Below are positions 3,800 to 16,250 of a stretch of DNA of 40,079 nucleotides, piece by piece (the stretch's first letter is position 1; each line of letters begins with the position of its first letter). The notes beneath the pieces were generated by a model that saw only the letters and a list, made by a program, of their open reading frames with translations, did no database searches and had not been told where the DNA came from. The position numbers and the translations under genes were made by a program. Source of the DNA: Kayfunavirus PDP21P1; the sequence record OZ035821.1; one strand, written 5' to 3'.

Positions 3800-4020
3800 T
3801 CAAGACGTTAGGTCGACGATAGGTCTAGGCTATGGCTTAGGGTAGGACGATAGGTAGGGACTATGGGTCTTCTTTGAGTCTCTATCTGTATAGTGTTATA
3901 GTATAACATTACGTCCTACACCATAAGTCTCACCAACCTACAGTCCTACAACCTACAGTCCTACAACCTACAGTCACAACCATAAGACACCAACACCTAC
4001 AGTCATAGACCTACAGTTAC
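3800..4020 (+). repeat. Short direct-repeat arrays in the terminal-repeat / concatemer-junction region
   Basis: Tandem CTACAACCTACAGTC and CCTACAGT units (about 3937-4016) and GATAGGT/TAGGGTAGG units (about 3806-3866), within a roughly 1-kb non-coding stretch between gene 19.5 and the first early gene. Analogous to the CCTAAAG-type repeats flanking the T7 terminal repeat. Confidence 0.45.
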
Positions 4021-4130
4021 TAGACACAGAGCTATAGACTTAAGGTCTAAGACATGTTAGTCAAAGACTATATCCTCTTAGTCACCATGAGGCCGACGAT
4101 AGCTTAATCAATATTATTTCAAATTACCTA

Positions 4131-8706: not shown

Positions 8707-8922
8707 ATGAAATTTGCACACAAGCAGGCTGGCGTTAATGGCGGGACTCAAATCGTTACCGTAACGAAACACAACGGCAAGGGTCTGGTGAAGACCACTG
8801 TCATCCCAACTAAGATGTCAAAGCAGCTTAACATCCCGTTCAAGACCCTTGTATATCTGGTCGAGTCCAACCACGAGAAGTACCTGAAGGACGCAGTGTC
8901 CAAGCTGGGGCAGATAAAATGA
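8707..8922 (+). CDS. Hypothetical protein (post-gene-1 ORF)
   Basis: 71-aa ORF with GGAGAG RBS directly after gene 1. No recognisable motif. Confidence 0.5.
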   Translation: MKFAHKQAGVNGGTQIVTVTKHNGKGLVKTTVIPTKMSKQLNIPFKTLVYLVESNHEKYLKDAVSKLGQIK

Positions 8923-8997
8923 CAGACCTACAGTTACTGGCCTTGTAGCTAGGAGCACTCGCAGTATTCACTTTAATCCAACGCAGAAGAGGTTAAC

Positions 8998-11863: not shown

Positions 11864-12018
11864 CTGACGTAGAGAAGAAATACATCGTGGAACTTGAGGG
11901 ACGTACCCAGTCTTTCGAGGTTCCGGTGTACGCAAAGTCTCTTGAAGAGGCTACCCTGAAGTCCCAAGAGTATGAGGACGCTGGGTTTGTGGTCGGACGG
12001 ATTCGTCCTGAGACCTAA
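11860..12018 (+). CDS. 2: Host RNA polymerase inhibitor, T7 gp2 homolog
   Basis: 52-aa hand-found [18 protein letters not shown]...[10 protein letters not shown] parallels T7 gp2 (HSFEVPIYAETLDEA...AGFEVTRVRP). GGAAGGAG RBS. Confidence 0.75.
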
Positions 12019-12036
12019 ACTATCACTGTAGGACAG
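12014..12036 (+). promoter_or_regulatory. Phage promoter variant (phi2.5-like)
   Basis: CCTAAACTATCACTGTA^GGACAG; one mismatch in the TATA element. Precedes the SSB gene. Confidence 0.55.
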
Positions 12037-12076: not shown

Positions 12077-12775
12077 ATGGCTAAAGAGCAACTGAAGACT
12101 TTCACCACTCCGGTAGCTGGTATCGTTGAGCCTTACGCATGGCTTAACAAAGCAGACACCAAGTTCAACGAGCGTGGTGAGCATAAGGTTAACCTGACAT
12201 TCGACCTGAGCAACCCGAAGGTCCGTAAGATGATTGATGTCTTGCAGAAGATTCACGACGATGCGTATGCGAAAGCACTCGCAGACCACGAGAAGAACCC
12301 ACCTAAGGTTCAGCGTGGCAAGAAGCCTATTGAACCACGAGAAGGCGACATGCCGTGGATTGAGAATGGTGACGGTACTGTTACCCTGAAGTTTAAATGC
12401 TTCGCGTCTTACCTGAAGGATGGTAAGTCAGAGCCTATCGTATTACGGTTCTACGACACCGATGCTAAGTTAATCCGTGACGTCCCGAATATTGGTGCTG
12501 GCTCCAAACTGAAGGTCAAGTTTAAAGTCCTACCGTTCAAGTGGAACGCTGCGACTGGTGCAAGCGTTAAGCTCCAGCTTGAGTCCTGCCTTCTGGTAGA
12601 ACTGAAGGAGTGGAAAGGTGATGGTTCTGGTGGCGATGGTGGCTGGGGTGACGATGAAGACCTCGGTACTGGGTACAAAGCGTCAACCGATGGTGACTTC
12701 GGGTCTGACGACTTCGGTGACGATGGTTCCGAAGGTGGTGACGACTCTGGCTCTGGTGGCGATTACGACTTCTAA
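12077..12775 (+). CDS. 2.5: Single-stranded DNA-binding protein, T7 gp2.5 homolog
   Basis: 232 aa, same length as T7 gp2.5. Conserved core (RGKKPxxPxEGDMP, GDGTxTxKFKC, GSKLKVK, ASVKLQLES) and acidic C-terminal tail ending in DF, as in T7. Confidence 0.93.
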   Translation: MAKEQLKTFTTPVAGIVEPYAWLNKADTKFNERGEHKVNLTFDLSNPKVRKMIDVLQKIHDDAYAKALADHEKNPPKVQRGKKPIEPREGDMPWIENGDGTVTLKFKCFASYLKDGKSEPIVLRFYDTDAKLIRDVPNIGAGSKLKVKFKVLPFKWNAATGASVKLQLESCLLVELKEWKGDGSGGDGGWGDDEDLGTGYKASTDGDFGSDDFGDDGSEGGDDSGSGGDYDF

Positions 12776-13227
12776 TGGCACAATGGTCTGCAAAACGGGG
12801 GCACTCTGTGGGTGCCTACCGCTCTGGACTTGAAGCCAAGAACCAGCAGTGGCTGGAACAGAATGGCGTCAAAGCGGAGTACGAAAGCCATTATATCAAC
12901 TATGTGATTCCAGCTTCCGACCACAAGTACACACCAGATTTTATCCTTCCTAACGGTATCATCGTGGAGACCAAAGGTATCTTCGATAGTGATGACCGTA
13001 AGAAGCACCTTCTGGTACGAGAACAGCACCCAGAGTTAGACATCCGGTTCGTGTTCTCAAGTTCCCGCTCAAAGTTATACAAAGGGTCTCCGACCACGTA
13101 TGGCGCATGGTGCGAAAAGAACGGCTTTAAGTTTGCCGACAAGTTCATCCCGGTTGAGTGGCTGCGAGAGGCGACTGTACATCTGCCTTCAGGCATACTC
13201 ATTCCAAAGAAGAAAGGAGTTAAGTAA
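12775..13227 (+). CDS. 3: Endonuclease I (Holliday junction resolvase), T7 gp3 homolog
   Basis: 150 aa. YVIPASxHxYTPDFxLPNGIxVETKG, DRKKHLLxREQHPELDIRxVFSSSRxKLYKGSPT matches T7 gp3. Confidence 0.93.
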   Translation: MAQWSAKRGHSVGAYRSGLEAKNQQWLEQNGVKAEYESHYINYVIPASDHKYTPDFILPNGIIVETKGIFDSDDRKKHLLVREQHPELDIRFVFSSSRSKLYKGSPTTYGAWCEKNGFKFADKFIPVEWLREATVHLPSGILIPKKKGVK

Positions 13228-13718
13228 TGAGCAAGAAGTTTAAACTGTCAGTAAATACGTGTGGCTGGCCTCGTGGGACCATCGTTACCAAGTGTGAGAA
13301 GGATCCCACACCATATCCGCACATGACCCTAGTTGAGTGCAGCACTCCGGGCACCTACAAAAACGGGTCTAACGGCCACAACACTCAGCCTGATGGTATG
13401 TGGGGAGCATGGGTCCATGACCATGAACTTGAGGAAATAAAGCAGGAAGAGAAACTCACTGGTGTACAGACCACTCAAGTCATGCCAGCTTCTAGCGTAC
13501 CGCCTGTGACTATGAAGCGTGAAGTCCTGACCATCAACAAGGTTGGTGTAGGTCAGACTTTCATCGTCCACGGTAAGCCTGACGAAGTGTACGTGAAGAT
13601 TAGCAACTCTCACGTCTTCAACCATAAGTTGCTCCAGATGCACACGACTGACGCCCAGCGCTTCCAGTCACACCTGAATCTGGTCGTAGTAGAGCTGGTG
13701 GTGTACAATGGTAAGTAA
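13227..13718 (+). CDS. Hypothetical protein, no T7 counterpart at this position
   Basis: 163-aa ORF with AAAGGAG RBS. Start overlaps the gene 3 stop; end overlaps the gene 3.5 start. No recognisable motif. Confidence 0.6.
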   Translation: MSKKFKLSVNTCGWPRGTIVTKCEKDPTPYPHMTLVECSTPGTYKNGSNGHNTQPDGMWGAWVHDHELEEIKQEEKLTGVQTTQVMPASSVPPVTMKREVLTINKVGVGQTFIVHGKPDEVYVKISNSHVFNHKLLQMHTTDAQRFQSHLNLVVVELVVYNGK

Positions 13719-14166
13719 GGTTCAGTTTAACCCACGGTCCCGGACTGACGCTATCTTCGTTCACTGTTCGGCTACCAAGCCAGATATGGACATCGGGGTG
13801 GAGACCATCCGTATGTGGCACAAGCAGCAAGGCTGGCTGGACGTAGGCTATCACTTTATCATCAAACGTGATGGCACTGTGGAAGATGGGCGCCCGGTCA
13901 ATGTCGTAGGGTCACACGTTAAGGACTGGAACTCAAAGTCCGTAGGCGTCTGCCTTGTAGGTGGAATCAACGCTAAGGGTCAGTTTGAAGCTAACTTCAC
14001 TCCAGCCCAGATGAACTCCCTGCGCAACAAGCTGGATGACCTGAAGGCCCTGTACCCTCAGGCAGAAATCAAAGCACACCATGACGTAGCACCTAAGGCG
14101 TGTCCAAGTTTCGACTTGCAACTCTGGCTGTCTACCAATGAACTGGTCACTTCCGACCGTGGTTAG
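13708..14166 (+). CDS. 3.5: Lysozyme / N-acetylmuramoyl-L-alanine amidase, T7 gp3.5 homolog
   Basis: 152 aa. TDAIFVHCSATKP, WLDVGYHFIIKRDGTVE, AHHxVAPKACPSFDL, C-terminal NELVTSDRG identical to T7. Confidence 0.95.
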   Translation: MVSKVQFNPRSRTDAIFVHCSATKPDMDIGVETIRMWHKQQGWLDVGYHFIIKRDGTVEDGRPVNVVGSHVKDWNSKSVGVCLVGGINAKGQFEANFTPAQMNSLRNKLDDLKALYPQAEIKAHHDVAPKACPSFDLQLWLSTNELVTSDRG

Positions 14167-14189: not shown

Positions 14190-14393
14190 ATGATTAAACT
14201 TATCGAATTTCTTGGTCGTACGGTGGTGCGTGGCTATCGTCGTGCTGCGGTACTGGAACGAAAGGTAGAAAAGAAGGCTGCCGATGGTGCTGCTCTGGCT
14301 GACAAGCTGACCATCGCGTCACTGGAAGCTGGCATGAAGGCACGTCAAGCTGACACCAAAGCTGACCAGTTGGCTCAGTTCTTCAAAGCCTAA
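14190..14393 (+). CDS. Hypothetical small protein (Ala/Lys-rich, predicted helical)
   Basis: 67-aa ORF with AAGGAG RBS, in the position of T7 gene 3.8 but without an HNH motif. Confidence 0.45.
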   Translation: MIKLIEFLGRTVVRGYRRAAVLERKVEKKAADGAALADKLTIASLEAGMKARQADTKADQLAQFFKA

Positions 14394-14411
14394 ACTATCA
14401 CCTTAGGGATG
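14389..14411 (+). promoter_or_regulatory. Degenerate phage promoter-like element
   Basis: CCTAAACTATCACCTTA^GGGATG; two mismatches in the -4/-3 TATA region, so possibly weak or inactive. Followed by a GGGAC-N10-GTCCC hairpin. Confidence 0.35.
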
Positions 14412-14456: not shown

Positions 14457-14535
14457 GTCTCCATAGCTCAAACGGTAGAGCGGCGGGTCGTTATGGCCTA
14501 TTGCGATTAGGGTTCGAATCCCCGTGGAGACGCCA
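14457..14535 (+). tRNA. tRNA-like element; anticodon arm unresolved
   Basis: Perfect 7-bp acceptor stem (GTCTCCA / TGGAGAC), discriminator G and encoded CCA; canonical D-arm (TA GCTC AAACGGTA GAGC); canonical T-arm (GGG TTCGAAT CCC). The 26 nt between D- and T-arms do not fold into a clean 5-bp stem / 7-nt loop by eye. Possible loop TTGCGAT (anticodon GCG) or GTCGTTA. Confidence 0.45.
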
Positions 14536-14546
14536 CTAAGGAGTGA

Positions 14547-16250
<1,704 letters not shown>

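Follow-up and report, generated by a model that had tools for sequence, protein, structure and literature searches.

What lies between the endonuclease I and lysozyme genes of this T7-like phage, and what could it be for? The window, i.e., the whole stretch of DNA analysed here, is a complete 40,079-bp K1F-like phage genome (Kayfunavirus, Studiervirinae). It carries an open reading frame of 163 codons plus stop (13227-13718, plus strand) directly downstream of gene 3, which encodes an endonuclease I of the Phage_endo_I type (12775-13227, plus strand), and directly upstream of gene 3.5, which encodes the amidase/lysozyme (13708-14166, plus strand). The first-pass annotation had described this frame as tightly packed between its neighbours, overlapping both of them behind a good ribosome-binding site, and coding for a hydrophilic product, and all of this proved accurate. 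The ATG shares one nucleotide with the TAA stop of gene 3 (TAATG), a Shine-Dalgarno sequence read from the DNA (AAAGGAG, 13213-13219, plus strand) lies 7 nt 5′ of it, the last 11 nt (13708-13718, plus strand) overlap the start of gene 3.5, and the predicted protein has a mass of 18.3 kDa, a pI of 8.4 and a GRAVY of -0.47. The same annotation had proposed synteny in relatives as a check, and the ORF was found unbroken and at an unchanged location, flanked by endonuclease I and amidase, in 23 of the 23 IMG/VR loci examined. The gaagaaaggagNtaagNNATG context at the start is identical in all 23 related loci, and the overlap with gene 3.5 measures 11 nt in 22 of 24 genomes and 14 nt in the remaining two. 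The ORF is a real gene, far beyond a chance reading frame. Since the overlaps with both neighbours are conserved, its translation is probably coupled to that of gene 3 as well as to that of gene 3.5.

Judged by the ORF list, sequence identity and profile matches, this is gp3.2, a catalogued and uncharacterised gene that marks the Kayfunavirus lineage and was already known. The PHROG 16385 profile covers residues 1-163 (E 3.1e-92), gp3.2 of phage EcoDS1 is 88% identical in amino acid sequence over its full length, and the position, both overlaps and the C-terminal motif discussed below are those of the family. The present gene is another allele of the orthologous EcoDS1/K1F gp3.2, with no difference of substance, and its exact protein sequence is already present at NCBI (P0001). 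A second profile, that of the 74-residue stand-alone family PHROG 15211, matches residues 94-163 (E 2.7e-39); both PHROGs are labelled “unknown function.” The idea of an insertion in the class II region, put forward at first pass, therefore survives in part: the locus behaves as an accessory hotspot (see below), but the gene is not a new insertion, because it is the same gene as the catalogued gp3.2 of K1F and EcoDS1.

The family is widespread within its lineage. The gene 3-3.5 segment matched 226 phage records overall, 127 of them at 90% identity or more, and it shows 88-93.5% DNA identity to the 40 best-matching records, which include Baskent_phicoli_1, EcoDS1, LM33_P1 and K1F. With the protein as query, tblastn matched 219 phage records and the clustered proteins (90% identity clustering) gave 254 matching clusters; gp3.2 occurs in nearly all Kayfunavirus genomes and cultured isolates, and “hypothetical” is its annotation in about 220 phage records. 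An HMM search of 1.84 billion representative proteins returned just 16 representatives (50% identity), none of them bacterial or characterised, and all those with a checked context lie between Phage_endo_I and Amidase_2 genes in T7-like phages; a second profile search that included divergent C-terminal domains added only a few further near relatives. The absence of a recognisable motif noted at first pass also held, as no match was found in Pfam (even at E up to 10), in NCBIfam, among the PADLOC defence-system models (0 families) or among the anti-restriction proteins catalogued in Pfam (0), and profile searches of the PDB were empty except for one chance match (E 0.3). The literature searched held no paper giving gp3.2 a function, its sole mention of “gp3.2” in a phage context being the gene table of Citrobacter phage SH4, and the HIDEN-SEQ essentiality preprint does not include the genus Kayfunavirus. 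The gene is an ordinary conserved hypothetical gene, with no sign of a new kind of system; what is new here is its domain architecture, selection profile, modular exchange and dispensability.

The nearest phage-RNA polymerase promoter upstream of gp3.2 is the copy CTAAACTATCACTGTAGGA (12009-12033, plus strand), just before gene 2.5. It belongs to repeat family D1, which has 12 copies in the genome and the consensus CTAAACTATCACTATAGG; the next copy (14384-14408) follows a 67-aa gp3.7-like ORF. As these promoters stand at 12009 and 14384 with no terminator between them (no terminator-like site was found between 12000 and 15000), gp3.2 is assigned from sequence signals to the class II (DNA-metabolism) unit 2.5-3-3.2-3.5-3.7. 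The Ala/Lys-rich gp3.7-like ORF (14190-14393, plus strand) comes after the amidase and ends at the promoter copy of 14384. The stretch from that promoter to gene 4, which starts at 14550, contains a tRNA-like element (14457-14535, plus strand), scored by the Rfam tRNA model at 37 bits (gathering threshold 29, E 2.3e-4) and called by ARAGORN as a 79-nt tRNA-Thr(CGT). Because ARAGORN found an equivalent in just one of 19 related loci (L001), this element may not be a working tRNA but a borderline match or one to a structured RNA. Note also that the early region contains short direct repeats resembling ACCTACAGTCCTA (families D7 and D17; 3920-4034, plus strand), and a similar copy is found near 8915-8951; the repeats may mark a replication origin, a regulatory site or a site of RNA processing.

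Alignments and structure prediction divide the protein into two domains joined by a linker. The N-terminal module, termed N1 (residues 1-72; 13227-13442, plus strand), is fast-evolving and replaceable, and the C-terminal domain (residues ~96-163; 13512-13715, plus strand) is the constant core of the family, corresponding to PHROG 15211. Both are modelled as small five-stranded beta-barrels that superpose on known SH3-like domains. The intervening residues 73-95 (QVMPASSVPPVT; 13443-13511, plus strand), rich in Pro, Ser, Thr and Val, have a pLDDT below 50 in both models, vary in length among relatives (a 7-residue indel), are the site at which extra modules are inserted in relatives of 220-227 aa and are missing from the 74-aa forms that consist of the C-terminal domain alone; this linker is probably flexible. 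The alignment places in the C-terminal domain a polar motif block, S126-N-S-H-x-F-N132...Q137-x-H-T-T141...R145-F146 (13602-13664, plus strand), in which S126-N-S-H-x-F-N132, Q137, H139-T-T141 and R145-F146 are invariant even in homologs with a C-terminal domain only 33-38% identical to this one, and M138 is nearly so. No other setting than the endonuclease I-amidase interval was found for this domain, distant Providencia T7-like phages included.

The profile and structure searches advised at first pass yielded no characterised sequence family, and predicted SH3-like barrels whose resemblance to known domains is at the level of the fold. Structural alignments to SH3-like domains mostly show less than 20% identity, gp3.2 matches none of the SH3, SH3b, KOW, FeoA and Tudor HMMs of Pfam, and the sole matches among predicted viral structures were members of the gp3.2 family and small phage proteins that are uncharacterised. 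The models resemble eukaryotic SH3 domains, FeoA, EF-P domain I/KOW, the C-terminal domain of ribosomal protein L2 and Tudor domains in fold only; there is no sequence relationship to these SH3-like families, and the resemblance is not informative on the ligand. We describe gp3.2 as a predicted pair of small SH3-like barrels on a linker, with no catalytic motif, and the generic predicted fold suggests a binding module rather than an enzyme.

The two halves of the protein evolve differently. N1, recognisable by the signature GWPxGTIVTKC...LVE...QPxGMWGAWV, is found in 54 of the 219 matching phage records (about 25%), and in relatives at least six other N-modules take its place, giving at least seven N-module classes without detectable mutual homology (hhalign probability ≤20%). 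Two N-modules in tandem produce three-module forms of 220-227 aa, in-frame deletions of N1 with the C-terminal domain kept occur in three proteins (P0122, P0138 and P0139), and forms of 74-76 aa have no N-module at all, the 74-aa form being the commonest. The stand-alone C-terminal domain (PHROG 15211) is what Cronobacter phage Dev2 and Citrobacter phage SH4 encode as gp3.2; such forms make up 14 of the 23 IMG/VR loci and, as estimated from an evenly spaced sample of 60 records, roughly half of cultured phages, while the other records that are not of the N1 type carry other modules. Altogether some three quarters of relatives lack N1 or have something else in its place. An internal duplication or a common origin of the modules was considered and rejected at the level of sequence, as hhalign comparisons of the N-modules with each other and with the C-terminal domain all stayed at or below 20% probability. 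The guilt-by-fusion search was equally empty: none of the alternative N-modules matches Pfam or another PHROG, and no characterised family emerged from either resource among the relatives and fusion partners of gp3.2.

Nei-Gojobori estimates were obtained for 24 genomes, with the N1 values taken from the six N1-type genomes. The C-terminal domain has a dN/dS of 0.135 (dN 0.124, dS 0.92) over all 24 genomes and of 0.118 (dN 0.045, dS 0.38) in the six N1-type genomes, against 0.107 (dN 0.073, dS 0.60) and 0.131 (dN 0.030, dS 0.23), respectively, for the amidase gp3.5, so that its constraint is on a par with that of the amidase (0.12-0.135 vs. 0.11-0.13). Since its synonymous rate is not suppressed, the C-terminal domain is conserved at the protein level. 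An overlapping DNA or RNA element was rejected as the source of this conservation, given the unreduced synonymous rate, an empty Rfam search and the absence of an internal promoter or terminator. For N1 the dN/dS is 0.24 (dN 0.273, dS 0.88, with six pairwise comparisons saturated at synonymous sites), its dN being six times that of the C-terminal domain in the same genomes. The variable positions of N1 fall mostly between predicted strands, and its higher variability may reflect relaxed constraint, not an arms race.

Though under strong purifying selection, gp3.2 has been lost almost entirely in some natural genomes. Two near-complete Kayfunavirus contigs, L033 (39,256 bp) and L034 (38,292 bp), lack the equivalents of window positions 13313-13670 and about 13367-13646, respectively, and the second deletion was seen again in another sequencing run (L035). 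The two deletions are independent, neither keeps the reading frame and both take away the conserved motif; their flanks are 88-95% identical to this genome, and both leave the last 48-72 nt of the gene, which carry the initiation region of gene 3.5. The remnants, of 41 aa (L033, 1501-1626) and 67 aa (L034 and L035, 1501-1704), are out of frame and still stop within the ATGGTAA where the gene overlaps gene 3.5. Two natural deletions in near-complete genomes thus indicate that gp3.2 is not essential for propagation, with the caveat that these genomes are assemblies of public sequencing runs of unknown propagation history; the remnants suggest that only the initiation region of gene 3.5 is indispensable at this locus. 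A different lesion is found in the records of K1F itself, which differ by one extra C at nt 404 of gp3.2: the 1-nt indel frameshifts the last 22 codons in NC_007456/DQ111067 (gp3.2 at 701-1171 of locus L031), and AM084414 (550-1023 of locus L032) is intact. With the second K1F record intact, the extra C of the 2005 record is probably an error of sequencing.

More distant relatives show what else the interval can hold. The most divergent gp3.2 homologs, with C-terminal domains about 39% identical to that of this phage, occupy the same position in loci L024-L030 and in Providencia phage PSTCR2; in these Providencia-type T7-like phages the endonuclease I is 66-68%, the amidase 53-60% and the primase/helicase 50% identical to the corresponding protein of this genome. 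One or two additional small ORFs lie there between the gp3.2 homolog and the amidase, for example a 118-aa ORF in L027 (4456-4812), which has no Pfam or PHROG match, and ORFs of 117 and 79 aa in PSTCR2 (L036, 1657-2230). With its N-modules swapped, extra small ORFs in Providencia phages and natural deletions, the gene 3-3.5 interval behaves as an accessory-gene hotspot. The hotspot locus, the tight packing and the lack of a known motif are compatible with a role of gp3.2 in host interaction or anti-defence. The upstream side of the interval needs a remark on annotation: the endonuclease I frame of L006, L010-L015, L020 and L021 is intact and has no 5′ ATG, so gene 3 probably starts with GTG or TTG in these loci. 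A truncated gene 3 (72 aa) in some relatives was discarded as an artefact of ATG-only ORF calling, the frame being intact. The same truncation of endonuclease I to its C-terminal 72 residues has entered the published record at least once, in the annotation of SH4 (72 aa).

How, then, might gp3.2 act? We tentatively favour, as plausible though well short of secure, a non-enzymatic, modular binding or adaptor protein serving host takeover or counter-defence; this reading is drawn from its predicted non-catalytic barrels, class II expression, lineage restriction, selection combined with deletability, module exchange and hotspot location. The protein would be a lineage-specific accessory factor, whose gene the phage RNA polymerase transcribes along with the rest of the class II unit, and stoichiometric binding would be its most likely mode of action. 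Through its polar patch (SNSHxFN/QMHTT/RF), the near-invariant C-terminal barrel would attach to a partner that is conserved either among Enterobacterales hosts or among these phages, and the fast-evolving, interchangeable N-barrel would add a second, strain-variable binding specificity. Such an adaptor would be useful in nature and dispensable for growth.

Phage T7 makes several small, non-essential host-takeover or anti-defence proteins, namely gp0.3 (Ocr), gp2, gp4.5, gp5.5, gp5.7 and gp5.9. By analogy, gp3.2 would share with such Ocr-type proteins a small size, a non-catalytic nature, early or class II expression, dispensability in permissive hosts and an expected stoichiometric mode of binding. 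No homology or common fold with them was detected, however, and the combination of a constant C-terminal domain with interchangeable N-modules is a feature of gp3.2 found in none of them. Phage accessory regions have been described as places among the core genes where variable counter-defence genes cluster in hotspots (Silas et al., bioRxiv 10.1101/2023.04.06.535777). The endonuclease I-amidase interval resembles them in its variable content (N-modules, zero to two extra ORFs, deletions), but differs in that an in-frame fusion joins its variable parts to a constant domain instead of leaving them as independent genes, and the gp3.2 motifs were not found in the supplementary files of that accessory-gene screen. 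Homology, fusion partners and the literature searched provided no direct support for an anti-defence role. Note also that the conservation and fixed position of the C-terminal domain could equally reflect a partner encoded by the phage, such as gp3, gp3.5 or the replisome.

Two other accounts look to the phage itself. The first, which we judge unlikely, holds that gp3.2 assists the replication, recombination or maturation of phage DNA as an accessory factor that binds DNA, or that binds one of the proteins gp2.5, gp3, gp4 and gp5 and tunes its activity. Its company speaks for this, as the gene is co-transcribed among those for the ssDNA-binding protein, endonuclease I and primase/helicase, always directly 3′ of endonuclease I and probably translationally coupled to it. 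SH3-like barrels often bind nucleic acids, and those of the Sso7d type and of integrase C-termini bind DNA; the C-terminal domain of the Kayfunavirus forms has, moreover, a pI of 9.2-10. This basic charge is not shared by the divergent homologs (pI 7.1-8.2), though, and among the invariant positions, held by Ser, Asn, His, Thr and Gln, there is a single Arg and no conserved basic patch. Replication does not require the protein, given the natural deletions in near-complete genomes, and swappable N-modules are hard to square with a conserved phage machinery as the partner.

That gp3.2 is instead a partner or regulator of gp3.5, either as a separately encoded SH3b-like cell-wall-binding subunit for the amidase or as a modulator of the regulatory interaction between lysozyme and RNA polymerase, seems to us distinctly improbable. 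The overlap of 11-14 nt with gene 3.5 in 24 of 24 genomes does imply coupled synthesis of the two proteins, but in Providencia phages the one or two ORFs mentioned above separate the homolog from the amidase, and what the deletion variants retain is just the translation-initiation region of gene 3.5. On the structural side, matches of this kind are no better than those to unrelated SH3-like barrels, and no SH3b family of Pfam is matched. The lysozymes of T7 and T3, finally, function without any such partner.

A more specific idea concerns the N-terminal region, for which the first-pass annotation had raised the possibility that its cysteines bind metal. All four potential ligands (C12, C23, H32 and C38) are present in this gp3.2, and C12 and C38 tend to occur together, with both in 24 sequences, neither in 65 and only one of them in 17; as this co-occurrence is confined to one subclade, it can be explained by shared ancestry. 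Comparison of the 106 N1-type homologs tells against the proposal: C23 is present in 106 of 106 and no other Cys is invariant, position 12 is Cys in 31 and Tyr in 49, position 38 is Cys in 34 and Ser in 70, and His is rare at position 32, where 74 sequences have Gly. N1 is, in addition, confidently modelled as an SH3-like barrel, without a metal requirement or a zinc-finger-like fold, and about three quarters of relatives do without this N-domain altogether, whether by absence or by replacement. The alignment does not support a conserved set of three or four Cys/His ligands in N1; a subclade-specific metal site is possible, and a metal site central to the function of gp3.2 is very improbable. 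Hardly credible at all is the notion that the ORF is spurious or non-functional and that only its 3′ end matters, as the initiation region of gene 3.5: the deletion variants that keep just the last 48-72 nt and the one frameshifted K1F record fit it, but it is contradicted by strong purifying selection (dN/dS 0.12-0.24) with synonymous change free, by a frame intact in 23 of 23 IMG/VR loci and matches in 219 phage records, by a motif kept down to 33-39% identity where the amidase is just 53-60% identical, and by the second, intact K1F record, which makes the indel probably a sequencing error.

To return to the modular adaptor that we favour, a bolder version of it can be formulated, which we regard as speculative and somewhat unlikely. 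In this version gp3.2 would found a family of modular counter-defence or host-takeover adaptors, in which the C-terminal domain is a constant anchor that binds a single conserved machine of host or phage by way of the SNSHxFN/QMHTT patch, and the N-modules (at least seven classes, sometimes in tandem) each neutralise or recruit a strain-specific host factor, so that module swapping would be an unrecognised intracellular determinant of host range in Kayfunavirus. Kayfunaviruses (K1F, LM33_P1 and CLB_P1-type phages) are candidate therapeutic phages, and their host range is usually credited to the tailspikes alone. Because gp3.2 is near-universal and strongly constrained, yet deletable, with its front half exchanged among unrelated modules, it is a well-defined candidate for a factor that determines host range or counter-defence inside the cell, and a reasonable choice for anti-defence or host-factor screens. 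If a target is found, the C-terminal domain would represent one new pairing of a small binding fold with a motif, and natural variants in specificity would be at hand as a panel in the N-modules.
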